DNA of 64,000 nucleotides from an uncultured Candidatus Saccharibacteria bacterium (GCA_964482995.1 CAYZZC010000002.1:1074-65073); one strand, 5' to 3'; numbered from the stretch's first letter, positions 37,881 to 57,343 are shown. Notes: a model not told the origin generated them from the sequence alone. Numbers and translations: made by a program.

Positions 37881-38243
37881 ATGCAAGGCGCGGCTATTAT
37901 TATAGGTGTTGGTGTCGATGTGGTGGAAATTGACAATATACAAAAAGCTCGGTTTAAAAAGAGGCTTGCCGAATATTTTTTAACCCCGCAGGAGATTAAA
38001 CTTATGCCCAAGGGGTCAAAAGTATCTCAGTATATTGCCTCCCGCTTTGCGCTAAAGGAGGCGGTCATCAAAGCATTTCCCGAAAGTCTTTCGCCTTTTG
38101 ATTTTAGGATTGAGAAGAGAGGTGGGCGGCCTGTGGTGGTATTTATTGACTCGCACCAGAATAAAAAATATAAAATATTTGCGAGCTTGACGCACACTGC
38201 GCACATTGCTGCCGCGGTCGCGATCGTACATACAAAGAAATAG
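37881..38243 (+). CDS. acpS: Holo-[acyl-carrier-protein] synthase (4'-phosphopantetheinyl transferase)
   Basis: IIGVGVDVVEIDNI, FALKEAVIKAF and SLTHTAHIAAAVAIV are typical AcpS motifs. 120 aa. Confidence 0.75.
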   Translation: MQGAAIIIGVGVDVVEIDNIQKARFKKRLAEYFLTPQEIKLMPKGSKVSQYIASRFALKEAVIKAFPESLSPFDFRIEKRGGRPVVVFIDSHQNKKYKIFASLTHTAHIAAAVAIVHTKK

Positions 38244-38245
38244 AT

Positions 38246-39949: not shown

Positions 39950-39950
39950 T

Positions 39951-40181
39951 ATGGACACCCTCAAACACATTTTCTCCTCAATTCTTGGTGTGCCTGAGGC
40001 GCGCGTTGTGGACTCGCTCTCGCCAGAGAACACCGCAACTTGGGATTCGCTCAATGCGATTATTTTACTCACCGAGATAGAGAAGGCCTTTAACGTGAAG
40101 TTTACGTTCGACGAGGCGATGGCAGTAAAGAATTTTGGCGGGGCCGTGGCACTTATCCGCTCTAAAGGTGGCAAAGTATAA
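39951..40181 (+). CDS. Acyl carrier protein (discrete, 76 aa)
   Basis: TWDSLNAIILLTEIEKAF contains the DSL phosphopantetheine-attachment serine; ATG 2 nt after the fkbH-like stop. Confidence 0.75.
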   Translation: MDTLKHIFSSILGVPEARVVDSLSPENTATWDSLNAIILLTEIEKAFNVKFTFDEAMAVKNFGGAVALIRSKGGKV

Positions 40182-40187
40182 ACTTAT

Positions 40188-40610
40188 ATGCCCGCCGTAT
40201 CTAAAAAATTTTCAGATATTATGGTTGGGGAGCGTGCCCAGTTTGAAATTAATATTACGGAAAAGTTAGTGGATGAGTTTGCAAAAGTCTCTGGCGACTA
40301 TAATCCGCTCCATACCGACGAAGCATATGCAAAAAACTCTCCGCTTGGTGGGCGTATTGCGCACGGCATGATCGCAGGCGCGCTGTTTTCTCGCCTACTC
40401 GGTATGTATCTCCCTGGAGAGAAATGCCTTTATTTATCACAGTCACTTTTTTTTAGAAAACCGATCAGGATAGGCACAGAGGTGATTGTGTTAGGGGAGG
40501 TCCAGCATAAAACAGACTCACTCCAAGCGCTCACTATAAGAACGTGCGTATCCAACAAACAAACAAGCGAAGCACTCGTCGACGGTGAAGCTATAGTCAA
40601 AATGTTATGA
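40188..40610 (+). CDS. MaoC-like hotdog-fold dehydratase
   Basis: DYNPLHTDEAYA matches the (R)-hydratase DxNPxHxD motif. 140 aa. Confidence 0.75.
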   Translation: MPAVSKKFSDIMVGERAQFEINITEKLVDEFAKVSGDYNPLHTDEAYAKNSPLGGRIAHGMIAGALFSRLLGMYLPGEKCLYLSQSLFFRKPIRIGTEVIVLGEVQHKTDSLQALTIRTCVSNKQTSEALVDGEAIVKML

Positions 40611-41353
40611 CCAAAAAAAACGGAAAAGTAGTCTTGTTGAGCGGCGGGATGGGTGGTGTGGGGAGTGCCATAGCAACGCTGCTTATAGAAAGTGGCTATC
40701 AGGTAGCTCTTTTATACAGGAGCTCCTCGGAGGGTGAGGTGTTGGAGAAAAAAGGAACACTTGGGGAGCTGTCTTTTTTTGTTCAATGTGATGTTGCAAA
40801 TTTTAGAGAGACTGAGTTTGCGGTCAAAAAAGTCCTCGATCATTTCGGATCTATTGATATATGCATCCATGCTGCGGTTGGGAAGATTACCAGAAAGCCG
40901 ATACTCGACATGAAGGCGGAGGAATTTAGGGATGAGTTTGAAGCGGGTTTGTTTGGAGCCTTTAATCTTTTTTCTTCCGCTCTGCCTTCAATGAAAAAGC
41001 ATGGTGGGGGTATGCTTATCGGTATCACTTCCTCAACTATCGAGATTGGTAGCGGAGCTCGTATGGGGGCCTACAGCACGGCAAAATATGCTTTGCGCGG
41101 TTTACTCCGCGAACTCTATAAAGAACTTAAGGCTGAAAATATTGATGTGTATGCCGTAGCGCCTGACCTTCTCAAAACCGATCTCACTGCAGATTTGCCA
41201 GAGAAATATTTTGAGTTTGCAGAGGCAAAAACACACCAAAAGAAATTAATGATCCCAGAAGATGTGGCAAAAGTTGTTCTTTCTGTATGCCAGGGCGCAG
41301 TAAAGAGCGGGAGCTCAATACTTGTCTCGACAGGTGTGGCGACTGCGTTATAA
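40607..41353 (+). CDS. SDR-family oxidoreductase (ketoreductase, FabG-like)
   Basis: LLSGGMGGVGSAIA glycine-rich motif, YSTAKYALRGL (YxxxK). ATGA overlap with maoC. Confidence 0.8.
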   Translation: MTKKNGKVVLLSGGMGGVGSAIATLLIESGYQVALLYRSSSEGEVLEKKGTLGELSFFVQCDVANFRETEFAVKKVLDHFGSIDICIHAAVGKITRKPILDMKAEEFRDEFEAGLFGAFNLFSSALPSMKKHGGGMLIGITSSTIEIGSGARMGAYSTAKYALRGLLRELYKELKAENIDVYAVAPDLLKTDLTADLPEKYFEFAEAKTHQKKLMIPEDVAKVVLSVCQGAVKSGSSILVSTGVATAL

Positions 41354-41362
41354 TCCCGACAC

Positions 41363-42823
41363 ATGCTTTTTAACTCGATTCCTTTTCTTGTATTTTTTCC
41401 CGTTGTCTTCTTTTTGTATTGGGCCTTACCAGGCAAGGTACGCCCTTTTCTTCTGCTTCTTGCGAGCTGCTATTTCTACATGGCATTTGTGCCGTACTAC
41501 ATTCTCGTCTTATTTTTTCTTATCACCGTTGATTATGTTCTGGCATTTTATATCGAAAGAGGAGGTGCCTATAAAAAATTATATCTCTACGTAGCGATCC
41601 TATCCAATGTAGGCCTCCTGTTTGTATTTAAATACTTCAACTTTTTCGATGACAATATAACAGCTCTTGCACAAACACTTCATTGGAACTATTCACTTGG
41701 TGCGCTCTCGCTTATTCTGCCGCTTGGTCTCTCGTTTCATATCTTTCAAAGCCTGGCCTATATTATTGAGGTCTATAAGGGTCGATACAATCCTGAGCGC
41801 AACTACCTCACCTATGCGCTCTATGTGATGTTCTTCCCGCAACTAGTGGCCGGCCCGATTGAGCGTCCTGCACAACTTCTCCCACAGCTTAAAACAACAC
41901 AGCAGTTCAGGTACAGCCAGGTCGTATCGGGCTTGCGTTTAATGATGTGGGGATTCTTTAAGAAAATTGTCATTGCTAATAACCTCGCGATTCTTGTTAC
42001 TTTTGTATATGCACGCTCGGGCACCGCAGACGCCTCAGTATTGTTGGTAGCCGTTTTCGCATTCTCGATCCAGCTCTATGCCGATTTTTCGGGGTACTCC
42101 GATATAGCAGTTGGCTCGGCTCGGATGCTTGGTATCGAGCTCGTACAGAACTTTAAACAACCTTACTTTTCGCGCTCGATTGCAGAGTTTTGGCGGCGCT
42201 GGCATATTTCGCTCTCCTCCTGGTTTCGCGACTATGTATATCTCCCGCTTGCATGGAAATACTCTGCTCGCCCGTGGGGCCTGTACGGCGCAGTCGTTTT
42301 TACTTTTGTGTTGACAGGTGTTTGGCACGGTGCGGGATGGAACTATGCCGCAATGGGCTTATTGTTTGGACTCTATATCTGTGTAGGTATGTGGACGAAA
42401 AATTGGCGTGACTCAGTTGCAAAAAAAATAGGATTAGGAGAAGGGCTGCGAGCGATTTTTCAGATAGGCACCACATTTATTTTGACCACGTTTGCATGGA
42501 TATTTTTTAGGTCAGCAAACCTGCAAGAAGCGCTGATGATCATTCGCCGTTTGTTAACAGAGTGGGGAAGCGACGCATTCCATTTTCTCCTTTGCGGTGA
42601 CTACTGCTCTTTTTATATGCTAGGTGTAGGTAAGAAGACTCTTCTTATGATAGGTCTTTCGGTCGCGATACTTTTTATTGTTGAATACGTACAACAATCA
42701 GCTACTACGCCGCGCCTCTGGCAGTATCGCGCGGTTAGATGGGGTTCTTATTACCTGCTCCTCGTGTGGACTCTTCTTATAGGCTACTTTGCACCGACAA
42801 TATTTATCTACTTCCAATTTTAA
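41363..42823 (+). CDS. MBOAT-family membrane O-acyltransferase (DltB/AlgI-like)
   Basis: Polytopic, with FWRRWHISLSSWFRDYVYLPL containing the conserved MBOAT histidine. Confidence 0.85.
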   Translation: MLFNSIPFLVFFPVVFFLYWALPGKVRPFLLLLASCYFYMAFVPYYILVLFFLITVDYVLAFYIERGGAYKKLYLYVAILSNVGLLFVFKYFNFFDDNITALAQTLHWNYSLGALSLILPLGLSFHIFQSLAYIIEVYKGRYNPERNYLTYALYVMFFPQLVAGPIERPAQLLPQLKTTQQFRYSQVVSGLRLMMWGFFKKIVIANNLAILVTFVYARSGTADASVLLVAVFAFSIQLYADFSGYSDIAVGSARMLGIELVQNFKQPYFSRSIAEFWRRWHISLSSWFRDYVYLPLAWKYSARPWGLYGAVVFTFVLTGVWHGAGWNYAAMGLLFGLYICVGMWTKNWRDSVAKKIGLGEGLRAIFQIGTTFILTTFAWIFFRSANLQEALMIIRRLLTEWGSDAFHFLLCGDYCSFYMLGVGKKTLLMIGLSVAILFIVEYVQQSATTPRLWQYRAVRWGSYYLLLVWTLLIGYFAPTIFIYFQF

Positions 42824-42827
42824 CTAT

Positions 42828-43985
42828 ATGCCTCTATTTATAAAAAATATCCTCATGTTTCTTACACCAATCGCGCTGGTGTTTGCGCCGGCAGTTATCG
42901 TCCTTACTGCTTCCGGTGAGTTTTATTCAACACAAAAGGTGGGAGAGTTGGCGCGCAGCAGGGAAACAATTGTTGTTGGTGCCGCCTACAGCAACACGAG
43001 GGGTGACTACCAATTGCAAGAGACCTTCATTCGTAAACCAGAAGTCATTGCCCTTGGCACCTCGCGGGTAGGAGGCTTCCGCGCAGTCTTTTTTAAAGAC
43101 CCTGCTGTTTTTTATAATGACACTGGCACAGGAGGAGTACTCAGCAACTTCAGATATTTCTTGGAGAAGGTTTCTGACAACTCGCCGAAGATTATCATCG
43201 CAGGCATGGACCCTTATTTTTTTAGCCCTGAAGAAGTCGCACGAAACAGTGTGGTCACAAGGCCCGACCCTTTTGTTGCTTATATCTCACCCCACCGCCC
43301 ATTTTTTGAGGGCCTCTTTTTGGGAGGCGGGTGGTGGAGGATATATCCCGATTACTTCTCAGATAAATTTTCTTTGAGTGATGTATTTGGTGCGCAGTAT
43401 GCGAATACAACATACATTGGCTTGCGCGCAGTTGCCGACGGTAACGGGTTCTTAAACGACGGCAGCAATTACTTTGGTGATGTTATTAGCAGCAAAGAGA
43501 AGCAACAAAATGCACGTGCGAGTATCGAGGCTCTAGCAGCAAGTATCTCTGAAACGAGCGGCGACGAGTACGGGAGTGGCATTTCACCAGAAGCCCTTGC
43601 TGAAGTACGCAGGTTCTTAGATACTACAAAAAAACAGGGGAGTTACGTAATTGGCTTTATACCGCCGCTTTCGCACGCGCAGTATGAGCGGCTAAAAGAA
43701 TTCCCTAATGCGCCCTATGCCTACGCTTTTAAAAATCTAGGACCAGTATTAACTAACCTCTATAAGGAATATGGCTACGATTTCTATGATTTTACGGACA
43801 TTACTGCCTTTGGTGGCTCGGACAGCGAGATGGTAGAGTCTAAGCACGGGTCAGAAAAGCTGTATCTGCGGATGTTTATAAAGATGGCGCAGATAAATAA
43901 ACAGCTTGGCGCTTTAGTGGACACGAGGTACCTTACAAAGAGGCTGCAAAGCGCAGAAAGCAATCTCGTTGTATTTCCTCTATGA
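42828..43985 (+). CDS. DltD/AlgJ-like membrane-anchored partner of the MBOAT (SGNH-like extracytoplasmic acyltransferase)
   Basis: N-terminal TM anchor, then IALGTSRVGG with a candidate catalytic Ser. Size (385 aa) and position immediately after the MBOAT mirror dltB-dltD. Confidence 0.5.
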   Translation: MPLFIKNILMFLTPIALVFAPAVIVLTASGEFYSTQKVGELARSRETIVVGAAYSNTRGDYQLQETFIRKPEVIALGTSRVGGFRAVFFKDPAVFYNDTGTGGVLSNFRYFLEKVSDNSPKIIIAGMDPYFFSPEEVARNSVVTRPDPFVAYISPHRPFFEGLFLGGGWWRIYPDYFSDKFSLSDVFGAQYANTTYIGLRAVADGNGFLNDGSNYFGDVISSKEKQQNARASIEALAASISETSGDEYGSGISPEALAEVRRFLDTTKKQGSYVIGFIPPLSHAQYERLKEFPNAPYAYAFKNLGPVLTNLYKEYGYDFYDFTDITAFGGSDSEMVESKHGSEKLYLRMFIKMAQINKQLGALVDTRYLTKRLQSAESNLVVFPL

Positions 43986-45055
43986 CAATCCATTACTTTA
44001 CCTTTAGCAATGTGCAGGGCGGCTCCTCCCGGCAGCGCGCATTTCGAGTCGTAGATGAGCTGCGCGCGCGCGGGCTCTCAGTCGTTATTCATACACCTCC
44101 CGTACTCGATATATCGCGCACGCGTTGGCCAAAAAAATTCTTGCTTATATTGCAGGTAGTCCGCTCACTCTTTTCGATCAAAAAGGGTGACATTATTTAC
44201 CTACAGCGCACGATCTCAAACAAATATTTTTTTGTGATTATGGTTGCGTATATTTGGTTTTTTAGACGGAAAATGATTTTTGACCTTGACGACCCGGTCT
44301 GGCTCCATAGCTTTTTTAAGACAAAAATGTTTACTAAGATGGCTGATGTTGTTGTCACTTGCTCACATGCACAAGCTGAGTGGGCGAGACAGTTTAATAA
44401 AAACGTACACATAATCCACATCGCCCTTGACCTTGCGGCCTACAAAAAATTCACCAAAGACTATACTACCAAATCGACTCCTGTGGTAATTGGGTGGGTA
44501 GGGACTGGGCCCGAGCACCTTTATAACCTCCAAGATCTCGCAGCTGTTTTTGAACAACTTTTAAAAAAGAGCCCCATCCCGTTTAAGTTTGTGCTTATCG
44601 GAGCGCTCAAAAACAAAAAGGTGTATGAGGTATTTCAAACTATTCCTGGCCTCAATGTCGAGTTTATAGACGCGCTTGACTGGAACAACCCCGAGAGCGT
44701 GCCGCGAGAGATCCAAAAATTTGATATTGGTGTCCTACCGCACAAAGCGGAGGGTGAGTGGAACAAGGCTAAAACCTCTTTCAAGATCCTTGAGTACATG
44801 GCGTGCGGGGTTGCCTCAGTGGTGAGCGATTTTGGCGAGATGCCGTACATTGTCACTGACGGCACAAACGGCTTTCTCTCTTCTTCTCAAGAGGAGTGGG
44901 CAGAGAAGTTGGAGCAGCTCATTGCAGACAAAGATTTGCGTGCGCGGCTTGGGAAGGCTGGGCAAGAGCGAGTGCGAGAAGAATATTCTTTTGACGCAAT
45001 TATCCCGCGGCTTATAGAAATTTTTAAGACTCTCGAGCGTGTGCCCAATCGATAA
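43982..45055 (+). CDS. Glycosyltransferase family 4/1
   Basis: C-terminal FKILEYMACGVASVVSDFGEMPYIVTDGTNGFL (EX7E region). Confidence 0.7.
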   Translation: MTIHYFTFSNVQGGSSRQRAFRVVDELRARGLSVVIHTPPVLDISRTRWPKKFLLILQVVRSLFSIKKGDIIYLQRTISNKYFFVIMVAYIWFFRRKMIFDLDDPVWLHSFFKTKMFTKMADVVVTCSHAQAEWARQFNKNVHIIHIALDLAAYKKFTKDYTTKSTPVVIGWVGTGPEHLYNLQDLAAVFEQLLKKSPIPFKFVLIGALKNKKVYEVFQTIPGLNVEFIDALDWNNPESVPREIQKFDIGVLPHKAEGEWNKAKTSFKILEYMACGVASVVSDFGEMPYIVTDGTNGFLSSSQEEWAEKLEQLIADKDLRARLGKAGQERVREEYSFDAIIPRLIEIFKTLERVPNR

Positions 45056-45740
45056 CCTCTTTGAGTGAGTTGCGCGTTCCTGCGTCAGACCAAAACCCAG
45101 TGTGTATATGGTGTGCACAGCGACCGTTGGTGACGTACCAGTTGTTTACGTCGGTAAGCTCTAACTCGCCACGAGCAGATGGTTTGAGGGTAGGGATAAT
45201 ATCAAATACGTTTGGCGGGTAGATGTAGAAACCGGTGACCGCGTAGTTGCTCTTAGGCTCTTTCGGCTTTTCTTCTATGCCGACAATCTTTCCATCCTTA
45301 AGTTCCGGTACGCCAAAGCGCGAGGCGTCCGGCACGAGCGATAAAAATAGCATCGCGTCTGTAGAACCGACGCTCGGTGGCAAGGTGGCAGGGAAGGCAG
45401 TGTAATCAAATATATTGTCACCAAGAATAACCGCGACAGAGTCTGACCCCACAAAGTCTTTGGCCAAGCTCAGCGCTTGTGCGATGCCGCCGGCCTCTTT
45501 TTGAACACGGTAGGTGAGCTGCACTCCGTAGTCGGAGCCGTCGCCTAGAAACTCCGCAATAGAGCCTATATGGTCGCCACCAGTTACGATCATGATATCC
45601 GTGATGCCCGCATATTTGAGCGTCTCAAGCGGGTAGAGGATCATGGGGCGGTTAAGGATGGGCACCATGTGCTTGTTTATAGTAAAAGTCGCCGGCTGAA
45701 GCCGAGTCCCTTTACCCCCCGCTAATATGAGACCTTTCAT
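45024..45740 (-). CDS. rmlA: Glucose-1-phosphate thymidylyltransferase-like nucleotidyltransferase (short RmlA-type)
   Basis: MKGLILAGGKGTRLQP...PMI signature and AVILGDNIF. Confidence 0.75.
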   Translation of the reverse strand: MKGLILAGGKGTRLQPATFTINKHMVPILNRPMILYPLETLKYAGITDIMIVTGGDHIGSIAEFLGDGSDYGVQLTYRVQKEAGGIAQALSLAKDFVGSDSVAVILGDNIFDYTAFPATLPPSVGSTDAMLFLSLVPDASRFGVPELKDGKIVGIEEKPKEPKSNYAVTGFYIYPPNVFDIIPTLKPSARGELELTDVNNWYVTNGRCAHHIHTGFWSDAGTRNSLKEVIDWAHARES

Positions 45741-45805
45741 AACGCTCAGAGTTATAACAGATAACAAGAGACAAGTACACAGGTTTCTGGTATTGTCGAT
45801 CCATT

Positions 45806-46816
45806 ATGAAAGGCACCATTTTTGTCACTGGCGGAGCTGGGTTCATTGGCTCTAATTTCATTAGATATGTGTTGTCTAGGCACCCATTAGCAAAAGTCGT
45901 TTGTCTTGACGCTCTTACGTACGCCGGCAATAAGGATAACCTAAAGGGTCTGCCTGCTAAGCGCTTCATATTTGTAAAAGGCGATATTGCCGATAAGGCA
46001 GTAGTAGCTCGTATCTTAAAAAAACATAAACCCGTTTATGTAGTACATTTTGCCGCAGAGTCGCATGTCGACCGTAGTATCCACGGCGGCGCAGAGGCAT
46101 TTTTCCATACCAATGTGCTTGGTACTGCGGCGCTCCTAGGCGTACTTAAAGGTGTTCCTTCTATTAAAAAAATAGTACATGTCTCGACCGACGAGGTGTA
46201 TGGTGCTCTGCCGCTCAAAGGTGGCAATAAATTTACCGAAGAGTCGCCCCTGCTCCCCAACTCTCCCTATGCAGCATCCAAAGCGGCATCTGACCTAGTG
46301 GCACGCTCATATTTTAAAACCTATGGTCTCCCAGTTGTTATCACGCGTTGTTCCAACAACTACGGCCCGTATCAGTATCCGGAAAAACTGATCCCTTTCT
46401 CAATTACTCGGCTTATGGAGGGGAAATCAATCACAATATATGGTGATGGACAGTATGTCCGGGACTGGATCCATGTTGAGGATCATTCCAGCGCAATCCT
46501 ACTCGCTTTAGAAAAAGGGGCTCCTGGTGAGATATATAACATAGGCGCGGATGATGAGTTTAGTAATCTTACTCTCGCACGACGTTTGCTCAAATATTTT
46601 AAAAAAGGTGAGTCTGCAATTACTTATGTCAAAGACCGGCCTGGGCATGACCGCCGCTACGCTATCGATGCTTCGAAGATTAAACGCGAACTCGGGTGGA
46701 AGCCAAAACACACGTTTAACAAGTCATTTGAAACAACGGTAGCGTGGTATGTTGAACATAAGGACTGGATGAAAAAAGCTCTCCTGCGTACAGGCAGAGC
46801 TAATACCCACCTATAA
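45806..46816 (+). CDS. rmlB: dTDP-glucose 4,6-dehydratase
   Basis: IFVTGGAGFIGSNF, HFAAESHVDRS, STDEVYG, YAASKAASD. Confidence 0.85.
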   Translation: MKGTIFVTGGAGFIGSNFIRYVLSRHPLAKVVCLDALTYAGNKDNLKGLPAKRFIFVKGDIADKAVVARILKKHKPVYVVHFAAESHVDRSIHGGAEAFFHTNVLGTAALLGVLKGVPSIKKIVHVSTDEVYGALPLKGGNKFTEESPLLPNSPYAASKAASDLVARSYFKTYGLPVVITRCSNNYGPYQYPEKLIPFSITRLMEGKSITIYGDGQYVRDWIHVEDHSSAILLALEKGAPGEIYNIGADDEFSNLTLARRLLKYFKKGESAITYVKDRPGHDRRYAIDASKIKRELGWKPKHTFNKSFETTVAWYVEHKDWMKKALLRTGRANTHL

Positions 46817-46817
46817 T

Positions 46818-47360
46818 ATGTCTTCCCTTACTAAAACAGTACTTGCATTTCCTGATGTATTTCTCATAACAACTGCTGTGCGGGAGGATGTGCGGGGCAA
46901 TTCTCTCACTATGTATGATGAAGAAGAGTTCGCTAAGCTTGGTATTACAGCATGCTTTGTACAGGACTATGTATCATTCTCAAAAAAAGGAGTTATCCGC
47001 GGTCTTCATTATCAAAAGCCTCCGCATGCGCAAGATAAATTAATCCGCCCCGCGACAGGCAAAGTGCTCGACGTAGTAGCTGTATACGACCAAGCATCAC
47101 CTGATTTCGGCAAATATATTTCTGTAGAGCTCGATGCAAAAAAAGGTGAGATGCTTTTTGTACCTGGTACCTATGCACACGGTTTTTGTGTGCTCAGTGA
47201 TGAGGGGGCACTCGTTGAGTATAAATTAAGTGATGGATATCATCCCGAGTTGGCGGGTGGAGTCAGATGGGACGATCCTTTATTTATGGTTGCGTGGCCT
47301 ACCTCTGATCCGCTATTGTCTCCCCAGGATGTTGCGTGGCCCCTTCTCATCAAAGCATAA
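46818..47360 (+). CDS. rmlC: dTDP-4-dehydrorhamnose 3,5-epimerase
   Basis: DVRGNSL, RGLHYQKPPHAQDKLIR and GFCVLSDEGALVEYK motifs. 180 aa. Confidence 0.85.
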   Translation: MSSLTKTVLAFPDVFLITTAVREDVRGNSLTMYDEEEFAKLGITACFVQDYVSFSKKGVIRGLHYQKPPHAQDKLIRPATGKVLDVVAVYDQASPDFGKYISVELDAKKGEMLFVPGTYAHGFCVLSDEGALVEYKLSDGYHPELAGGVRWDDPLFMVAWPTSDPLLSPQDVAWPLLIKA

Positions 47361-47362
47361 TT

Positions 47363-48211
47363 ATGACTGTATCGCGCGATAAAATTCTCACTACAGGGGC
47401 AGGAGGTATGTTGGGCAGCTATGCCAATTTTGGTATAAAAACTACCCGCGATATGCTCAACGTAGAAGACCTCTCTCAAGTGCGCGCTTTGTTTATGCAA
47501 AGCAGGCCCTCAGTGATTTTTCATTTTGCTGCAGCGACAAATTTGGTTGAGTGTGAAAAAGACCCTACAGGAACATACAGAGCAAATGCTGTCGGTACCT
47601 ATAACATTGCTCTTGCCGCACGTGAAATAGGAGCAAAACTGGTGTATGTATCTACCTCTGCAATCTTTGACGGCAAAAAAGAGGCTCCGTATCTGGAGAA
47701 TGATATACCCAGCCCTCAGAACCATTATGGTCATTCTAAATATATGGGAGAGCTAGTTGTAGAGAGTATGTTGCCCGATGCTGTTATTGCTCGCACCTGT
47801 TGGATGTTTGGCGGCGGCCCCGACAAGGATCACAAATTTGTTGCGAATATTTTAAAACAATTGGAAAAACCAAAAATTGAAGTCATCGGTGGCAAGCGCG
47901 GCTCCCCCACCTACGGCAAGGATTTTGTCGAAGCACTCATTACTCTTGTTGAGGAAGAGAAGGGAGGTATATTTCATGTGGTGAACGAAGGATCACCTAC
48001 ACGAGTTGAAATTGCTCGCGAAATTGTAAAGATCGCTAGAGCCTCGTCCAAGGTCGTTGAAGCAGATTCAGCAGTGTTTGAAAAACAATACCCTGGAGCG
48101 GGTGCACGTGGTAATGAGAGTATTGCTTCAACAAAAATCACTTTGCGTCCATGGCAGGAAGCATTGGCAGAATATATCAACACAGAGTGGAAGAGGAAGA
48201 TTATTTCCTAA
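47363..48211 (+). CDS. rmlD: dTDP-4-dehydrorhamnose reductase
   Basis: ILTTGAGGMLGS, FHFAAAT, YGHSKYMGE (YxxxK), GIFHVVNEG. Confidence 0.8.
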   Translation: MTVSRDKILTTGAGGMLGSYANFGIKTTRDMLNVEDLSQVRALFMQSRPSVIFHFAAATNLVECEKDPTGTYRANAVGTYNIALAAREIGAKLVYVSTSAIFDGKKEAPYLENDIPSPQNHYGHSKYMGELVVESMLPDAVIARTCWMFGGGPDKDHKFVANILKQLEKPKIEVIGGKRGSPTYGKDFVEALITLVEEEKGGIFHVVNEGSPTRVEIAREIVKIARASSKVVEADSAVFEKQYPGAGARGNESIASTKITLRPWQEALAEYINTEWKRKIIS

Positions 48212-48215
48212 GATC

Positions 48216-49100
48216 ATGAAAGAAACCCCAGACATTTCTATAGTGGTTTTAAATTGGAATACTTCATACCTGCTTACAAGAGCACTTGAGTCTATTATTT
48301 CTGCAGCAGGCGATATCAACTATGAAGTTATTGTGATCGACAACGCCTCGACCGACGGGGGGTTTAAGCATGTGCCAGAAAATATCCGTCATAATCCTCG
48401 TTTTACTTTCATACAGAACGAAAAGAATTTAGGATGGGCGGCTATCAATATCATGCTTGAGCAATCGCATACAAAATACATTGCGACCATAGATCCTGAT
48501 GCACTTCTTCGTCCAGGCGCACTCCAATCTCTCTATAGGTTTATGGAAGAGCACCCAGAAGCGGGAGCAGCAACAGCGTCACTTTTTAATCCAGATGGTT
48601 CCCCTCAGCTCTATTATCGTCGTATCATGACGCCCTCGATATATTTCTTCACTACGATTATCGGGAGAGTTATCGATAAATACCTGCTTAACCTCAGGCG
48701 TTGGAAACAATATCGTTATGAAGACCTTAATATTAATGTCCTTTCAGAAGTAGAGCAGCCAGCATGGCCATGCCTTATGTGGCGGCGCGAAGCACTTGGC
48801 ACATATATCGTTGATGAACAAATCCCTTTTTATTTTCTTGACGTTGAGATGAGTAGGAGCTTGTATAACCGAGGATATAAAATATATCTTGTACCCGACG
48901 CTACGATTACCCACCTCAAGTCGACCTCCTATAATAAGAAAGAAAGCTCATGGCGTCGGAAGGAGTATAACCGCAGCCTTATGGTATATTTTAAAAAGCA
49001 CTATCCATTTTCTGCTCCATTGGTATGGGTTGCAGCATGGATCGACCGAGCACTCAGAGCCTTGTCCCGAGCTTTTCTTGGCCGAGAACCGTTGCGATGA
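48216..49100 (+). CDS. Glycosyltransferase family 2
   Basis: ISIVVLNWN...VIVIDNASTDG and IDPDAL (DxD) motifs. Confidence 0.75.
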   Translation: MKETPDISIVVLNWNTSYLLTRALESIISAAGDINYEVIVIDNASTDGGFKHVPENIRHNPRFTFIQNEKNLGWAAINIMLEQSHTKYIATIDPDALLRPGALQSLYRFMEEHPEAGAATASLFNPDGSPQLYYRRIMTPSIYFFTTIIGRVIDKYLLNLRRWKQYRYEDLNINVLSEVEQPAWPCLMWRREALGTYIVDEQIPFYFLDVEMSRSLYNRGYKIYLVPDATITHLKSTSYNKKESSWRRKEYNRSLMVYFKKHYPFSAPLVWVAAWIDRALRALSRAFLGREPLR

Positions 49101-50332
49101 ATATGGAAGATTGTATTTATAAGACAACCTGTCGGGTGTGCGAAGGAAGCGGCCTTGTTGAGGTGCTTAACTTAGGTTCAACTCCGCCTGCAAACGCATA
49201 TCTTAGCCAAGAAGATTTGGATAAGCCAGAAAAATATTTTCCTTTGGTTCTATATTTTTGTCGGACTTGCTCACTCCTTCAGTTACGCCATGTGGTGAAC
49301 CCTGAGATCCTCTTTAAGGATTATCATTTTTTAACTGGCGCAAGCTCACCCTCAGTCGCACATTTTAAGGAGTATGCCGAAAAAGTGATATTGCCACTTA
49401 TTACTTCGCCTAACGATCTTTTAATAGATATCGGCGGCAATGACGGCGTTCTGCTCAGTTATATAAAGGATAAAGCTCGCGTACTCAATGTTGACCCGGC
49501 TGACAACCTCGCCTCCATTTCAGAAGAGAGGGGTGTGCCATTTTATCCGGCGTTTTTTACATCACAAACAGCGGACGAGCTGCTAGAGAAATTTGGTGAA
49601 GCAAAAGTGGTGACCGCAAACAACGTGTTTGCTCACACGGACCCTATTCGAAATGTGTTCGAGGGAGTAGCAAAACTTATTGGTGAAAATGGTACGTTTA
49701 TATTTGAAGTTCATTGGGCGAAGCATCTTGTAGATGAAAGCGCTTTCGACCAGATATATCACGAGCATCTTTGTTTTTACTCGCTGCACGCACTAAAAAT
49801 GTTAGTAGAAGGGGCGGGTATGCAGATATTTGATGTTGAGATAGTCCCGGCACAAGGCAAGTCGCTGCGTGTCTATACTGCGAAGAGCCGCGCGCCAAGC
49901 GAAAACGTTACTCGCGTTCTTGCTGAGGAAAAAGCTGCAGGGCTCACAAACGAAGCAACTTACCACGCGTTTGCACAACATGTGGAAGAAAATAAAAAGA
50001 AGGTTGTCTCACTACTCAAAGAGCTAAAAAGCAAAGGTAAAAAAATAGTGGGCTATGGCGCCCCAGCAAAGAGCAACACACTCCTTAATTATTATGGTGT
50101 CGGCAAAGAAACACTCGACTATTTAACTGACACGACAACTCTCAAGCAAGGGCTCTTTAGTCCTGGGACACACATACCAATCGTCTCTCCAGATAGGCTT
50201 TTGACTGATACTCCAGATTACATACTACTTCTCGCATGGAACTTTAAAGACGCTATTTTAGAGAAAGAAAAAGCGCTTCGAGCAAAGGGCGTAAAATTTA
50301 TTGTCACTGTGCCTAGAGTAGAAATTATATAA
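49097..50332 (+). CDS. NDP-hexose C-methyltransferase family (TylC3/EvaC-like) with N-terminal zinc-binding domain
   Basis: CRVCEGS...CRTC Cys4 motif, LIDIGGNDGVLL SAM motif, and a C-terminal HLCFYSLHAL...VYT block of the C-methyltransferase family. ATGA overlap with the GT2. Confidence 0.7.
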   Translation: MNMEDCIYKTTCRVCEGSGLVEVLNLGSTPPANAYLSQEDLDKPEKYFPLVLYFCRTCSLLQLRHVVNPEILFKDYHFLTGASSPSVAHFKEYAEKVILPLITSPNDLLIDIGGNDGVLLSYIKDKARVLNVDPADNLASISEERGVPFYPAFFTSQTADELLEKFGEAKVVTANNVFAHTDPIRNVFEGVAKLIGENGTFIFEVHWAKHLVDESAFDQIYHEHLCFYSLHALKMLVEGAGMQIFDVEIVPAQGKSLRVYTAKSRAPSENVTRVLAEEKAAGLTNEATYHAFAQHVEENKKKVVSLLKELKSKGKKIVGYGAPAKSNTLLNYYGVGKETLDYLTDTTTLKQGLFSPGTHIPIVSPDRLLTDTPDYILLLAWNFKDAILEKEKALRAKGVKFIVTVPRVEII

Positions 50333-50381: not shown

Positions 50382-52268
50382 ATGCCTCTCCAAAACGAGA
50401 AAAATATTATTCTGCTTTCTGAGATAGGGCAGCTACCGGCCCTTGAGCATTTTTTGGGAGAGCACCCAGAGATCGTCTCAGAAGGCTATACGTTAATTCC
50501 GATTGATATTGAGATCGAGAATGTGCTAATGGAAAAAGGCATTCCTTTTGTCTCTGGACGAGAGTATCGCACGCGAGACGCCGACTTTATGGTGCTCGCC
50601 GAAGAGTGGCCACGAGCCCTGTTTGAGAGCAAAGACTGGTTGTTCTTCTCGTATCGCGGTGTGTCACTTTCTCAACTGTACTTTCTTTCAGTGCAATGGT
50701 ATCTCTCCCATCTTCTATACTACGCAGATATTGTTGCAAATGTGATTCATAAACATATTGGATTGAAGCGACTAGTTGTATTTCCTGCTCCAGACGGTAC
50801 ACCCCCAATGGGAAGTGTCCTCGTTGCGCGTCAAATTCATGCTTTTGTAGACGCAGCGGAATGTATAGGGCGAGCTGGTGGCGTAGAAGTGATTGTTCAG
50901 AATATTGATTCAGCACTCAAAAATGAAATTCGCTCCGCATCATTTACTTTAAAACGAGGCCTTTTTAGTGTTGGAATATTGCTTCTTAATATCATTGTTG
51001 CCTCGATGCGTTCAAAACGAGAGATCAGTATTCTTGCAAGTGACTATTGGAAAAATCTAGAACCGTATATAAAAAACCTGCCTGCCGAGATTATGCTTAT
51101 CGATCGGCAGGAAGCTTTTAAAGCAGGGATAAAAAATATATGGAAGTACCGGATGCGCTTCGTGCATCCTGACTCGTTTAGAGAATCAGTCCAGGAGGAA
51201 CAAAGCACGGCTAGAGAAAATATTGCAAGACAGTGGAGTTTGCTTAAACAGCAAGGCACAATGCCCACTTTTGAGTTTAGAGGGTTTTCTCTTCGACCAC
51301 TTTTTGTGCAGGCGCTTGAGGCTATTATTAGAGACGTTCTAGAAGAACGGCTTGAAGATATCGATGACACACACGCAATGCTCAAGCGTTTGAAACCACA
51401 AGTTGTAGCTTTGCGCGCGACAGTCAGTACCCAGACACACTTTGTTATTTTGGCACAAGTGGCACGCGCACAAGGCATACCATCGATAGAGATGCAGCAT
51501 GGTTTTGAGTACTACGGCCCCGGTTCGGTGAGTAAACGTCACCGTAGCGAATACACAGGTGTATATGGCCCACTCACCGCGCGGCAACTTGCTGAGGTTG
51601 GTGACAACGACACTACTCCAGTAATAATCGGCTCCCCACGTTTTGATGTATATGCGTCGCTCAGAGACGCTGGCGCAAACAAAAAATCAACAGGACGAGT
51701 CACTGTGCTGTGTGTTGCCCCTGCGGTAGACCCGGGCGGAGACTTTGACACATATGAGACAGAGGAATTTTTTAAGACGATTGCCAATGCAGCAACGCAC
51801 ATTCCTAACATTCATGTAATCGTCAAGCGTCGCCCGGGACCCAACAGAGATGAATGGTATCTTTCAATGATTGCCTCGTTATTCTCAACTATTTCTCATG
51901 AGGTTGCACAGTTTGAACCATTTGCAGAGCTCTACCCATGCGCCGACATCGTAATCTCTTGCTACTCAACTGCAGCCATCGAAGCAATGCAATGCGGTAA
52001 GCCACTTATCTATCTCGGTGTCTCTCCAGAGCAGGCAATGATGGGGGTGCATCATTTCTCATACTACGCTAGTCAAGGCGCAATGATGATCGCCACCACT
52101 GAGGCAGAACTAAGCACCGCTCTCGTATTTCTTGTAAGAGACCAACATGCACGCGCAGAAGTATCAAAACACGCGGTGGCGTTTCTGGACCGGGAGTATG
52201 CATTCGACGGGCGCGCCAATGAGCGTGCGGCCGAATTAGTTCGCTCACTCGCTGCGAGCAAAAGGTAG
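50382..52268 (+). CDS. Large capsule/teichoic-acid-type polymerase-like protein (CDP-glycerol glycerophosphotransferase/Capsule_synth-like C-terminal domain)
   Basis: C-terminal ADIVISCYSTAAIEAMQCGKPLIYL resembles the TagB/TagF pattern ADxLITDYSSvxFDFLLLDKPIIFY. N-terminal 300 aa unassigned. Confidence 0.45.
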   Translation: MPLQNEKNIILLSEIGQLPALEHFLGEHPEIVSEGYTLIPIDIEIENVLMEKGIPFVSGREYRTRDADFMVLAEEWPRALFESKDWLFFSYRGVSLSQLYFLSVQWYLSHLLYYADIVANVIHKHIGLKRLVVFPAPDGTPPMGSVLVARQIHAFVDAAECIGRAGGVEVIVQNIDSALKNEIRSASFTLKRGLFSVGILLLNIIVASMRSKREISILASDYWKNLEPYIKNLPAEIMLIDRQEAFKAGIKNIWKYRMRFVHPDSFRESVQEEQSTARENIARQWSLLKQQGTMPTFEFRGFSLRPLFVQALEAIIRDVLEERLEDIDDTHAMLKRLKPQVVALRATVSTQTHFVILAQVARAQGIPSIEMQHGFEYYGPGSVSKRHRSEYTGVYGPLTARQLAEVGDNDTTPVIIGSPRFDVYASLRDAGANKKSTGRVTVLCVAPAVDPGGDFDTYETEEFFKTIANAATHIPNIHVIVKRRPGPNRDEWYLSMIASLFSTISHEVAQFEPFAELYPCADIVISCYSTAAIEAMQCGKPLIYLGVSPEQAMMGVHHFSYYASQGAMMIATTEAELSTALVFLVRDQHARAEVSKHAVAFLDREYAFDGRANERAAELVRSLAASKR

Positions 52269-52322: not shown

Positions 52323-53087
52323 ATGCTAAATAGCTATAATTTAAAGCGAAAAACAGTCCTTGTGACTGGCGCATGCGGGCAAATTGGCCAGGCATTGGTG
52401 CTAGCGCTCCTTAAAAACGGTGCATATGTCTATGGCGTTGATGTGGTGCCCGCGGTTGACTCCAAGTTTAAAAAGCTCTTAGCGCCCTACGCTCGTCGCT
52501 TTTCATACATTGCAGCAGATATTACCAGCGAGCGCAAAATTAAAGCAATGCTACGCGCTCTCAAGCGCCCAGTAGATGTGCTTATCAACTGTGCCGGGGT
52601 CGGTGTCTATACACCGTTTGAGAAGCGCACCGAGGAAGAACTCGACCGCGTCATAAACCTCAACCTAAAAGGCACGATCTTTATGTCCAAGGCCATTTCA
52701 AAAGACATGGCAAAGAGAAAGAAGGGCACTATCATAAATTTCGGTTCGGTTTATGGTGTGGCAGTGCCGGACTTTCGCATCTACGGCGACTCTGGCAGAA
52801 ACAGTTCTGAGATTTATAGCGCAACAAAAGCAGGCATTATACATCTGACAAAATATCTGGCTGTCTATTTGGCGAAGCATGGGGTTAGGGTTAACGCTAT
52901 TTCCCCTGGAGGTGTATTTAACAACCAGGCAGACTTTTTTGTGAAAAATTACGAATATAAGACGCCGATTGGTCGTATGGCTACGCCGGATGATCTTGTG
53001 GGAGCCATACTGTTTTTAGCCTCAGACGATGCTCGTTACATAACCGGGCAAAATATTGTTGTAGATGGAGGATTCACCTTATGGTAA
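52323..53087 (+). CDS. SDR-family oxidoreductase
   Basis: VLVTGACGQIGQAL, NCAGVG, YSATKAGI. Confidence 0.8.
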   Translation: MLNSYNLKRKTVLVTGACGQIGQALVLALLKNGAYVYGVDVVPAVDSKFKKLLAPYARRFSYIAADITSERKIKAMLRALKRPVDVLINCAGVGVYTPFEKRTEEELDRVINLNLKGTIFMSKAISKDMAKRKKGTIINFGSVYGVAVPDFRIYGDSGRNSSEIYSATKAGIIHLTKYLAVYLAKHGVRVNAISPGGVFNNQADFFVKNYEYKTPIGRMATPDDLVGAILFLASDDARYITGQNIVVDGGFTLW

Positions 53088-55501
53088 AACGAGCGAAGGA
53101 AAAAACAGATAAAAGACGCAAAGCGTTTGTCATTGGAGCCGGCATGAGCGGGCTCTCTTCTGCTTTGCGTATGGCTGAGCTCGGGCTCGATGTCACGCTG
53201 TTTGAGAAGGACGGAGTTGTGGGTGGGATGGCAGGTTCATTTGCCTGGGGGGAGTTTCCTCATATGGACCACGGCCCACACATCTTTCATACCCCAGACG
53301 AACGTCAGGCAAAGATTTGGGACACTGAGTACGGCGATTTATTTTATAAAAACGAATTCTGGGGCAAGAACGTCAAGGGGGAAAGGTTCGATGAATACTA
53401 CGATTATCCGCTTTCGCTCGAGTCGCTCAAGAGTTTTCCTGCCAAGCTTCGTACACAGGTTTTGGAGGAGATAGGGAAGCTCGACGAAACCCGCAAAGCA
53501 GAGGCAAAGAGTTATCGCGAGTATGTGCTCGAGCTTGTGGGCCCAACACTCACAGAGATGTTTTTTATCCGTTACCCTGAAAAACTATGGGGAGTCTCGG
53601 TTGACGATATGACTCCCAATTGGGCACCTAAGCGAGTTAATTTCCGCAGAGCGAAAGGGCACTTTCACGCAGGGCAGTGGAGCGCGGTAGGTAAATATGG
53701 CGCGGGCAGGGTCTTGGAGCGTATGGCAGAGAAATTTACTGCGGTTGGTGGCACCTTGCGTCTCAATACTGCACTTACTGGGATTGAAAAGAAAGACAAC
53801 ATCATTACTTCTCTCGTGTTTGGTAAAGAGAAGATCGTAGTAGGGCCAAATGATCACGTTGTTTCTACCATGCCACTTCCCGTGCTTGGCGAACTCTTGG
53901 GTGTGCACAATAAGCTTAAATATCGTGGGGCAAAGCTTATTTTTATTGCCGCAAAGAAAAGCCAAGCCATAAAGGGCAAGCCGAGTTTCTTGTACTATGA
54001 TGATCCTAATATCATCTTCCACCGCGTCAGCGAGCAGAAAAAGTTTTGTCCGGTTGGATTCCCTAAAAACAAGACCGTGTTGACGGTTGAAGTTGCTTTT
54101 ACCCTCGGGGACGAACGCGACAAGACTTCTGAAAAAGCGTTTATCGAACGCGTAACCAAAGACCTTATAAAAGTAGGTCTGCTTAAGAAAGGCGAGGCTT
54201 GTGATGGCAAAATGGTCTCGCTGCCGTATGTGTACCCCCTTATGGTAAAAGGTGTTGAAGATGAACTAGCTCAAGTACGCTCAAAAATAGCGGCGTTTAA
54301 GCAGCTCCACCTTATTGGCACCGGCGGCGACTACCACTATGCAGACCTGCAGATCCTTGCGGTAAAGGGGCGCGACTTAGGAGAGCGGCTTGCAGGAAAA
54401 AATGAGCTGGAAAGTAAAGAACTCCGCAAAGATATACAAACACACTCTTTTAATACAGAAGTGCAGCTTGGTGCACACACAGTCAAATATGGTGCACCAG
54501 CGTTTATTATCGCCGAAGTCGGTCTCAACCATAACGGGTCAGTAGTGCTTGCAAAGAAGCTGATAGACGCGGCTAAAGAAGCCGGAGCATCGGCAGTCAA
54601 ATTTCAGAGTTATCGCGCAGAGAGCCGACTCTCTAAAAAAGTAAAAGAGAATCGTTATGCTGAGGAGTTGGTGGACACCGAGGAGTCGACCTTCAAGATG
54701 TTGAAGCGCCTCGAGTTTGGACTTAAAGAACATAAGGAGCTTTTTGCCTATGCACGTAAAGTGGGTATTCCTATTTTTTCTACCCCGTTTGATATTGAGA
54801 ATGTTGAATTACTTGAGTCTCTCGGTACGCCCTTTTATAAAATCGCCTCGATGGACGTAGTTAATTTGCCGCTCATTAAGCGAGTAGCCCTGACAGGGAA
54901 GCCGATCATTATGTCGACCGGTATGTCGACGCTCTCGCAGATCGACGACGCGGTCGGCACAGTGCGCGGCGCAGGGAACAAAAATCTTGTACTACTCCAA
55001 TGTGTTTCCTCCTACCCAGCTGCAGCAGAGGACATGAACTTGCGCGCAATGAAAACGCTTCATAAAACATTTGGTGTGCCTGCCGGCTTCTCTGACCATG
55101 CTATTGGCCTTACCGCCTCTGTGGTCGCGCTCTCGCTTGGGGCTGTGGTAATCGAGCGGCACTTTACGCTCGATAGGTTTATGGAAGGGCCCGACCATAT
55201 ACTTTCTTCTGATCCAAAAGAGTTGAAAGAGCTTGTGCGATTGAGCCGCACTATACCGCTTATAAAAGGTAAAGGACAAAAGATTATTGTGGGGAGCGAG
55301 GTTGAGACGATAAATAAATTTAAAAAAGGTCTCTACGCAAAAGTAAATATAAAAAAAGGGCAGAAGATTACAACTGAGATGCTTACGATCAAAGGTCCAG
55401 GTGGAGCGATTCTACCTAAATTTATGGACATGGTAGTGGGTAAAACCGCTCACGAAGCGATCTCTGCAGATTATCCGATCCTTTGGGACCATGTTGTATG
55501 A
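53081..55501 (+). CDS. Fusion protein: N-terminal UDP-galactopyranose-mutase-like FAD oxidoreductase domain plus C-terminal NeuB-family synthase (N-acetylneuraminate/pseudaminate synthase-like) with SAF domain
   Basis: N-terminus AFVIGAGMSGLSSA...GGMAGSF...HGPHIFHTPD matches the Glf dinucleotide and HIFHT motifs. C-terminus has PAFIIAEVGLNHNGS, LLQCVSSYPAAAEDMNLRAM, GFSDHAIGL and a SAF-type tail. 806 aa. Confidence 0.7.
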   Translation: MVKRAKEKTDKRRKAFVIGAGMSGLSSALRMAELGLDVTLFEKDGVVGGMAGSFAWGEFPHMDHGPHIFHTPDERQAKIWDTEYGDLFYKNEFWGKNVKGERFDEYYDYPLSLESLKSFPAKLRTQVLEEIGKLDETRKAEAKSYREYVLELVGPTLTEMFFIRYPEKLWGVSVDDMTPNWAPKRVNFRRAKGHFHAGQWSAVGKYGAGRVLERMAEKFTAVGGTLRLNTALTGIEKKDNIITSLVFGKEKIVVGPNDHVVSTMPLPVLGELLGVHNKLKYRGAKLIFIAAKKSQAIKGKPSFLYYDDPNIIFHRVSEQKKFCPVGFPKNKTVLTVEVAFTLGDERDKTSEKAFIERVTKDLIKVGLLKKGEACDGKMVSLPYVYPLMVKGVEDELAQVRSKIAAFKQLHLIGTGGDYHYADLQILAVKGRDLGERLAGKNELESKELRKDIQTHSFNTEVQLGAHTVKYGAPAFIIAEVGLNHNGSVVLAKKLIDAAKEAGASAVKFQSYRAESRLSKKVKENRYAEELVDTEESTFKMLKRLEFGLKEHKELFAYARKVGIPIFSTPFDIENVELLESLGTPFYKIASMDVVNLPLIKRVALTGKPIIMSTGMSTLSQIDDAVGTVRGAGNKNLVLLQCVSSYPAAAEDMNLRAMKTLHKTFGVPAGFSDHAIGLTASVVALSLGAVVIERHFTLDRFMEGPDHILSSDPKELKELVRLSRTIPLIKGKGQKIIVGSEVETINKFKKGLYAKVNIKKGQKITTEMLTIKGPGGAILPKFMDMVVGKTAHEAISADYPILWDHVV

Positions 55502-57306: not shown

Positions 57307-57343
57307 GGCCGGAGTCTGGGACTCCGGCCGGTTATACAATTCA
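57307..57343 (-). terminator. Intrinsic terminator (perfect 10-bp stem), mainly serving the minus-strand gene
   Basis: GGCCGGAGTC-tgg-GACTCCGGCC. On the minus transcript it is followed by AUUUUCUUUGUCUU; on the plus side the T-run is poor. Confidence 0.65.

Follow-up and report, generated by a model that had tools for sequence, protein, structure and literature searches.

A predicted dTDP-rhamnose-pathway branch towards a C-methyl-branched 6-deoxyhexose in a surface-glycan locus of a candidate phyla radiation bacterium

Introduction

The subject of this study is a sugar C-methyltransferase gene that lies beside a set of rml genes in a 64,000-nucleotide stretch of DNA (GCA_964482995.1, CAYZZC010000002.1:1074-65073, recorded as from an uncultured Candidatus Saccharibacteria bacterium); the whole stretch is called the window below. 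By comparison with other genomes and with solved relatives of the enzyme, the locus probably encodes a branch of the deoxythymidine diphosphate (dTDP)-rhamnose pathway, with a C-methyl-branched 6-deoxyhexose as its product, destined for the cell-surface glycan of a candidate phyla radiation (CPR) bacterium.

MtmC and TcaB9 are proven 3-C-methyltransferases whose substrates differ. MtmC (mithramycin, Streptomyces argillaceus, structure 4rv9), like TylC3 and EryBIII, is a dTDP-4-keto-2,6-dideoxyhexose 3-C-methyltransferase of mycarose pathways, and the route to its substrate uses RmlA- and RmlB-type enzymes, as does the window. It also shares with the window enzyme a four-cysteine zinc domain, an S-adenosylmethionine (SAM) domain, a PF08484 domain and the Tyr/His/Tyr-x-Glu-His residues. 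These enzymes belong to antibiotic clusters and serve 2-deoxygenated sugars, whereas the window gene lies in a CPR surface-glycan locus with no 2,3-dehydratase or 3-ketoreductase, where the 2-hydroxyl should remain. TcaB9 and KijD1, with the same predicted fold and catalytic residues as the window enzyme, act on dTDP-3-amino-2,3,6-trideoxy-4-ketohexose, as does the 3-C-methyltransferase EvaC; the window, in contrast, has no DegT-type sugar aminotransferase. In the same family, most of whose characterised members methylate C-3, NovU, CloU and CouU are 5-C-methyltransferases of the noviose pathway (NovV-T-W-U-S). They occur in aminocoumarin clusters, and their pathway draws on five enzyme types that are all found in the window, but the window's RmlC is more like true RmlC than like NovW.

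The family is also known from a surface-glycan setting. The TylCIII homologue CBU_0691 of Coxiella burnetii is predicted to make virenose (6-deoxy-3-C-methylgulose) for the lipopolysaccharide O-antigen (PMC3539893), and the window enzyme is a further member with such a setting. The two are alike by description, both being TylC3-family enzymes of surface-glycan loci with a predicted nucleoside diphosphate (NDP)-4-keto-6-deoxyhexose substrate that retains its 2- and 3-hydroxyls. The TDP route proposed for Coxiella (thymidylyltransferase, 4,6-dehydratase, C-methyltransferase, 4-reductase) corresponds to the rmlB-rmlA-rmlD-methyltransferase core of many CPR loci. In Coxiella, however, either GDP or TDP may be the carrier and a dedicated reductase is missing from the genes found (PMC3539893), whereas rmlA, rmlB, rmlC and rmlD are adjacent in the window. 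According to PMC7203242 and to references cited there and in PMC5644692, Burkholderia andropogonis, Azorhizobium caulinodans and Phyllobacterium trifolii have 3-C-methyl-rhamnose (evalose) in their O-polysaccharides. The likeness to the window lies in the class of sugar, predicted for the window, and in its place in a surface polymer. The three are Gram-negative proteobacteria, however, and their rhizobial sugars are described as derivatives of D-rhamnose, presumably formed from GDP-mannose.

CPR bacteria are found attached to host cells, a way of life in which the envelope probably plays a central part. We know of no chemically characterised surface glycan from the CPR (Patescibacteria), and paper searches turned up none. 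Synthesis of dTDP-L-rhamnose is reported as conserved across CPR classes (PMC9166423). PMC11623550 was considered as a source on the CPR rhamnose pathway and set aside, as it concerns host rhamnose. A link between C-methyltransferases and CPR was not found in the literature searched, and a conserved rml-methyltransferase module across Patescibacteria appears to be undocumented.

The methyltransferase and the adjacent rml genes

A sequence-only reading of the window had proposed rmlA on the minus strand, rmlB-rmlC-rmlD on the plus strand, a GT2 and a methyltransferase. The open reading frame (ORF) map, the sequence itself, Pfam and NCBIfam confirm all six genes, coordinates included:

45024..45740, minus strand: rmlA, predicted short-form glucose-1-phosphate thymidylyltransferase of 238 amino acids, divergent from rmlB (PF00483, 176.6 bits)
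45806..46816, plus strand: rmlB, dTDP-glucose 4,6-dehydratase, yielding the 4-keto-6-deoxy intermediate (TIGR01181, 451.5 bits, above the cut-off of 365.1)
46818..47360, plus strand: rmlC, dTDP-4-dehydrorhamnose 3,5-epimerase (TIGR01221, 161.9 bits, above the cut-off of 155.75)
47363..48211, plus strand: rmlD-like NAD(P)H-dependent dTDP-4-ketohexose 4-reductase (PF04321, 191.6 bits)
48216..49100, plus strand: soluble GT2-family glycosyltransferase, candidate transferase (PF00535, 69.5 bits; DNASTD and DPD motifs)
49103 (alternatively 49097)..50332, plus strand: predicted SAM-dependent NDP-4-keto-6-deoxyhexose C-methyltransferase of the TylC3/MtmC/TcaB9 family, 409 or 411 amino acids (PF08421, PF13489, PF08484)

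The genes are tightly packed, with gaps of 1 nucleotide between rmlB and rmlC, 2 between rmlC and rmlD, and 4 between rmlD and the GT2 gene. The close packing that had been noted therefore stands, but the ATGA-type overlaps do not: at most one is possible, between the GT2 and methyltransferase genes, and it requires the start ATG at 49097. The start at 49103, favoured by gene callers and by most homologues (which align from residue 3), leaves a gap of 2 nucleotides instead.

The methyltransferase matches the zinc-binding profile PF08421 at 81.5 bits (cut-off 31.3), the class I SAM profile PF13489 at 53.4 bits and the C-terminal profile PF08484 at 188.5 bits (cut-off 23.5), so that the PF08421/PF08484 search suggested by the sequence-only reading finds both domains far above their cut-offs; NCBIfam gave the protein no name. 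In a sequence search of the PDB (E ≤ 1e-3), only sugar 3-C-methyltransferases were matched, all over their full length: MtmC (4rv9, 1e-85), KijD1 (2e-74) and TcaB9 (3.5e-72). Judged by a full-length match at E 1e-85 to solved structures, the predicted fold is settled. The window enzyme is 34% identical to the TcaB9/KijD1 type and 37.5% identical to MtmC (286 bits), a similarity much like that of MtmC and TcaB9 to each other (39.7% identity, 280 bits). Identity as an O- or N-methyltransferase was rejected, given the exclusively 3-C-methyltransferase solved relatives and the presence of both family-specific Pfam domains. Neither clustering with O- or N-methyltransferases nor loss of the zinc or C-terminal domain, the two outcomes named beforehand as telling against a C-methyltransferase, was observed.

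The residues are conserved along with the domains. In an alignment of 238 sequences (the window protein, 235 homologues, TcaB9 and MtmC), the zinc cysteines Cys12, Cys15, Cys55 and Cys58 match those of TcaB9 and MtmC, and each is kept in 225-238 of the 238. Tyr76, His180, Tyr221, Glu223 and His224 are each kept in 230-238 and correspond to the residues examined in the TcaB9 active site, Tyr76, His181, Tyr222, Glu224 and His225, a numbering that fits the SEQRES record at an offset of 2. The SAM motif reads DIGGNDG (residues 111-117) where TcaB9 has EIGCNDG and MtmC has EIGSNTG, and its second glycine is variable. By its domains, residues, SAM motif and genomic association, the protein is assigned to the TylC3/MtmC/TcaB9 family; the earlier placement in the TylC3/EvaC family is borne out by the domains, the full-length match to solved 3-C-methyltransferases and the zinc and active-site residues.

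The rml assignments are of uneven strength. RmlB carries TDEVYG and YAASK motifs. RmlC is nearer to a genuine RmlC (7pvi, 5e-36) than to NovW (9e-23), EvaD (1e-14) or ChmJ, and its RGLHYQ, KL.R, YK and RWDDP blocks align with 7pvi. RmlA has a GGKGTRL motif and, as closest solved relative, the short RmlA of Bacillus anthracis (3hl3, E 5e-75); against TIGR01207 it reaches 232 bits, under the cut-off of 360, because it is a short form that lacks the C-terminal ~50 residues. Its start is probably the ATG at 45740 (MKGLILAGGKGTRL..., 238 amino acids) rather than the TTG at 45767 (ORF 45024-45767). The RmlD-like reductase has GxxGxxG and YGHSK motifs and scores 190.2 bits against TIGR01214 (cut-off 224), and its top solved relatives are all dTDP-4-dehydrorhamnose reductases (5u9c, E 7e-42).

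Conservation of the linkage in other genomes

A HMMER scan of 1.84 billion representatives of 50%-identity clusters gave 16,449 matches at E ≤ 1e-3 and 4,027 at E ≤ 1e-30. The sequence-only reading had called C-methyl sugars rare in cell-surface glycans; this holds for chemically characterised glycans, but not for genes, as the family is abundant outside antibiotic clusters. A locus scan in which each species was represented by one genome yielded no fewer than 563 relatives of the methyltransferase, from which the best 80 loci were retained; CPR lineage names are attached to 44 of these 80. The linkage between rml genes and the methyltransferase is conserved in dozens of CPR species genomes. 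Loci with at least 4 kb of upstream sequence fall into three tiers by the identity of their methyltransferase to that of the window:

64% or more, 11 loci: rmlA in 10, rmlB in 9, rmlC in 9, GT2 orthologue in 8
45-64%, 25 loci: rmlD directly upstream in 18, rmlA in 15, rmlB in 16, rmlC in only 5, GT2 in none
Below 45%, 25 loci: no true rmlA, rmlB or rmlD; other short-chain dehydrogenase/reductase (SDR) enzymes and RmlC-like proteins

The closest tier has the gene order GT4-type glycosyltransferase, rmlB, rmlA, rmlC, rmlD, GT2, methyltransferase and a 628-amino-acid protein, and it is only in this clade that the GT2 orthologue adjoins the methyltransferase (8 of 11 loci). In the middle tier the core is rmlB-rmlA-rmlD-methyltransferase and is found in diverse CPR lineages, Gemmatimonadaceae and a DPANN archaeal bin. 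The most distant tier includes Peribacteria, alphaproteobacteria and Planctomycetes.

Gene fusions point to the same pathway. The methyltransferase is fused to RmlD-like domains (P0030, P0122 and P0252), an RmlC-like domain (P0133), SDR domains resembling dehydratases or epimerases (P0127, P0129, P0141, P0145 and P0165) and GT2 domains (P0154 and P0170). These natural fusions are independent evidence for a predicted role of the methyltransferase in an NDP-4-keto-6-deoxyhexose pathway whose product is passed to a glycosyltransferase. The connection to dTDP-4-keto-6-deoxyhexose intermediates, proposed from the window alone, is thus strengthened by rmlA/B/D linkage across many genomes as well as by the fusions. 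In a neighbour-joining tree, the rml-linked methyltransferases form one clade, with the window's clade nested within it, and the solved actinomycete enzymes MtmC, TcaB9 and KijD1 lie on the other side with the distant group.

A protein identical to the window methyltransferase, and its nearest relatives (67-89% identity), are encoded on metagenomic contigs, and those with names are Parcubacteria, Kaiserbacteria, Paceibacterota or Patescibacteria. Since the named relatives carry these labels, the window is assigned to a CPR bacterium, of the Parcubacteria/Paceibacteria by this measure, a very small organism of groundwater type.

Several loci depart from the general pattern. Methyltransferases 48-64% identical to that of the window, with rmlA/B/D neighbours, occur in Aenigmatarchaeota or 'uncultured archaeon' bins (L036 and L038) and in L011-L013, among them Myxococcales and Gemmatimonadaceae. 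In the tree these fall within the rml-linked clade of the CPR, through either horizontal transfer or mis-binning. In three CPR loci (L009, L039 and L057) the C-methyltransferase gene has a paralogue within 17 kb; in L009 a 30%-identical copy is beside rmlD and a 70%-identical copy beside the GT2 gene. The position of rmlA also varies. In most of L002-L009 it sits between rmlB and rmlC on their strand, and its identity to the window gene is only 52-55%, while in the window, L001 and L007 it is found upstream of rmlB in the opposite orientation, and these copies are 77-91% identical. It looks as if rmlA was replaced or inverted in this sub-lineage.

Proposed pathway

Neither an NDP-hexose 2,3-dehydratase nor a DegT-type aminotransferase is present among the ~60 window ORFs scanned, and the sole aminotransferase in the window (57993-59309) is a HemL-like class III enzyme. 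A 2-deoxy or 3-amino substrate of the mycarose or tetronitrose kind was rejected on this ground. Because these genes are missing from the set, the substrate should be a 4-keto-6-deoxyhexose with its 2- and 3-hydroxyls intact, i.e. dTDP-4-keto-6-deoxyhexose itself.

The analysis shows the enzyme's family, its intact catalytic residues and its lasting linkage to rml genes, whereas its activity and regiochemistry, the order of the steps, the stereochemistry and the acceptor are inferred. RmlA would make dTDP-glucose, which RmlB would convert to dTDP-4-keto-6-deoxy-D-glucose. The methyltransferase (49103-50332), with its His/Tyr/Glu site, would then deprotonate a carbon alpha to the 4-keto group, most likely C-3; if TylC3/TcaB9-type enzymes are a guide, the equivalent of His224 would be the base, and the enolate would attack the methyl group of SAM. 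RmlC would epimerise C-5 and the RmlD-like reductase would reduce the 4-keto group. Transfer of the sugar would then fall to one of three flanking candidates: the GT2, the GT4-type enzyme upstream or the 628-amino-acid protein downstream. Methylation at C-3 is favoured because the solved relatives are all 3-C-methyltransferases and the C-methyl hexoses retrieved from surface glycans are all 3-C-methyl (PMC3539893, PMC7203242).

If C-3 is inverted, as is reported for TylC3, methylation would take the place of C-3 epimerisation and RmlC would invert C-5 only, giving dTDP-6-deoxy-3-C-methyl-L-mannose (3-C-methyl-L-rhamnose). The same logic applied to loci that lack rmlC would give a virenose-like sugar of the D series. 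The natural substrate of the RmlD-like enzyme may be the methylated keto-sugar, since rmlD orthologues stay linked to the methyltransferase even without rmlC. The C-methyl-branched dTDP-6-deoxyhexose that the sequence-only reading predicted is, as a prediction, supported by the domains, residues, rml linkage and fusions together.

Several points weigh against this pathway. The tree parts the rml-linked clade from the MtmC/TcaB9/KijD1 branch, so the regiochemistry is carried over from enzymes that lie outside the clade. Nor do the genes present decide for C-3, because the noviose (5-C-methyl) pathway, NovV/T/W/U/S, uses the same five enzyme types. RmlA and RmlD both score under the NCBIfam trusted cut-offs. 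With rmlC nearby in just 5 of the 25 loci of the 45-64% clade, RmlC may act outside the methyl-sugar branch. Finally, the stereochemical prediction rests on the C-3 inversion of TylC3 (TylCIII) as quoted in PMC3539893.

Alternative pathways

The alternative that survives best takes up the point about RmlC. It may be that dTDP-4-keto-6-deoxy-D-glucose is 3-C-methylated and reduced directly by the RmlD-like enzyme to a virenose-like 6-deoxy-3-C-methyl-D-gulose or -allose, while RmlC and RmlD make dTDP-L-rhamnose in parallel. A route of these four enzymes has been proposed for TDP-D-virenose (PMC3539893), and it agrees with the rmlB-rmlA-rmlD-methyltransferase core of the wider clade, where 18 of 25 loci have rmlD directly upstream but only 5 have rmlC nearby, and with two of the RmlD-methyltransferase fusions (P0030 and P0122). 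We nonetheless regard it as unlikely for the window, whose own clade has rmlC in 9 of 11 loci, placed between rmlA/B and rmlD. In addition, RmlC itself is fused to the methyltransferase in P0133, and rmlC may sit elsewhere in those genomes whose 17-kb loci lack it.

Methylation at C-5 is a considerably less probable outcome. C-5 likewise adjoins the 4-keto group, and a NovU-type 5-C-methyltransferase, a member of the same family from a pathway with the same five enzyme types, would yield a 5,5-gem-dimethyl, noviose-like dTDP-sugar, with RmlC serving as a 3-epimerase only. The distinctness of the rml-linked clade from the solved 3-C-methyltransferases also speaks for this reading. However, those solved relatives are all 3-C-methyltransferases, and the residues that they use are conserved here; RmlC is nearer to true 3,5-epimerases (5e-36) than to NovW (9e-23); and the C-methyl hexoses retrieved from surface glycans carry their branch at C-3 (PMC3539893, PMC7203242).

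It is very improbable that the adjacency is incidental, with the rml genes making dTDP-L-rhamnose only and the methyltransferase using another nucleotide-activated keto-sugar (for example an intermediate of the downstream nonulosonic-acid module or a GDP- or CDP-sugar): the gene does border a NeuB/CMP-transferase module, with which it seems to share a transcription unit, and family members below 45% identity adjoin other SDR enzymes rather than rmlA/B/D, but the rml linkage is kept in many loci without nonulosonic-acid genes, the fusions are to RmlD-like, RmlC-like and dehydratase-like domains, and rmlD, GT2 and methyltransferase are contiguous in the closest clade.

A broader proposal, put forward tentatively and doubtful as it stands, is that the rmlB-rmlA-rmlD-C-methyltransferase core, mostly without rmlC, is a lineage-wide module of Patescibacteria, also present in DPANN bins, and that a branched sugar and not rhamnose is the common CPR end product. 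On that reading, what metagenomic surveys count as a conserved 'dTDP-L-rhamnose pathway' in CPR would in large part lead to a branched, virenose- or evalose-like 3-C-methyl-6-deoxyhexose. This sugar would be a signature of the envelope in these episymbionts, and the window's clade would have gained rmlC and GT2 to arrive at an L-series sugar. Calls of 'rhamnose pathway present' in CPR reconstructions may hide a different end product. The narrower prediction, that the compact, conserved module makes a C-methyl-branched deoxysugar, is open to testing with recombinant enzymes and no cultivation. A 3-C-methyl-6-deoxyhexose could serve as a chemical marker for CPR bacteria in environmental samples, and glycodiversification would gain from C-methyltransferases that are expected to act on the RmlB product, a simple sugar.

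Neighbouring genes and setting of the locus

Two further genes flank the rml-methyltransferase cluster and encode potential transferases:

43982..45055, plus strand: GT4-type (Glycos_transf_1) glycosyltransferase (PF13692 and PF00534)
50382..52268, plus strand: conserved 628-amino-acid protein directly 3' of the methyltransferase, with weak C-terminal likeness to surface-carbohydrate/BFO_1060-type transferases

In L001-L009 and L028, an orthologue of the GT4-type enzyme (56-80% identity) is encoded upstream of either rmlB or rmlA. Homologues of the 628-amino-acid protein (24-54% identity) are found downstream of the methyltransferase in L002-L009. This protein reaches NF046086 at E 1.8e-7 and TIGR04396 at E 2.3e-5, both far under the cut-offs, and searches of Pfam and of PDB sequences gave no Pfam match and no solved relative. 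For the GT2, no transmembrane segment is predicted, and comparison with solved structures gives generic GT2 matches only (best E 2e-9), which do not indicate donor specificity.

Between the methyltransferase and a strong hairpin at 57307-57329, the sole convincing terminator candidate downstream of it, lie the genes for the 628-amino-acid protein, a PtmA-like SDR, a NeuB fusion of 806 amino acids, an NAD-binding protein and a CMP-sugar cytidylyltransferase. Together these five form a nonulosonic-acid module, which is probably co-transcribed with the rmlB-methyltransferase genes. A promoter scan of the window found 28 candidates against 20 ± 4.6 in shuffled sequence, which is not usefully above expectation. 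The NeuB fusion (53081-55501, plus strand) joins an N-terminal domain resembling FAD amine oxidases and UDP-galactopyranose mutase (GLF) to a NeuB nonulosonic-acid synthase domain and a SAF domain. This architecture is unusual for NeuB; it is kept at 71-81% identity in L003 and L007, and in the window it is flanked by the PtmA-like SDR, the NAD-binding protein and the cytidylyltransferase.

The window from ~9 to 64 kb is almost wholly a surface-glycan locus, with many GT1/GT2/GT9/GT47-like transferases, FkbM and other methyltransferases, a PMT_2-like membrane transferase, GtrA and an ABC exporter. Within it, at 37881-43985 (plus strand), is a Dlt-like carrier-protein module. Its genes encode a 4'-phosphopantetheinyl transferase, an FkbH-type loader (TIGR01686, 305 bits), a MaoC dehydratase, an SDR, a small acyl carrier protein (39906-40181; PP-binding, 27.7 bits), an MBOAT with ~9 transmembrane segments and a 398-amino-acid protein with one N-terminal transmembrane segment. 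This content suggests carrier-protein-dependent O-acylation (glyceryl or hydroxyacyl) of a surface polymer. A search of the 80 related loci, most of which reach only a few kb upstream of rml, gave no homologue of the MBOAT or of the 398-amino-acid protein.

Other genes of the locus are less easily placed. At 30986-34015 (plus strand), a zinc alcohol dehydrogenase is encoded together with thiamine-diphosphate E1 alpha and beta subunits, and no E2 or E3 is seen nearby; these may modify a sugar or a side chain. At the distal end, beside the ABC exporter, are the HemL/GntE-like class III aminotransferase gene (57993-59309, plus strand) and a gene for a B12-binding radical-SAM protein that is weakly HpnJ/AprD4-like (62136-63953, plus strand). 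Just upstream of the glycan locus, at 6542-9074 (plus strand), a TrwB/TraG-like coupling ATPase gene is followed by one for a lamin-tail-domain protein.

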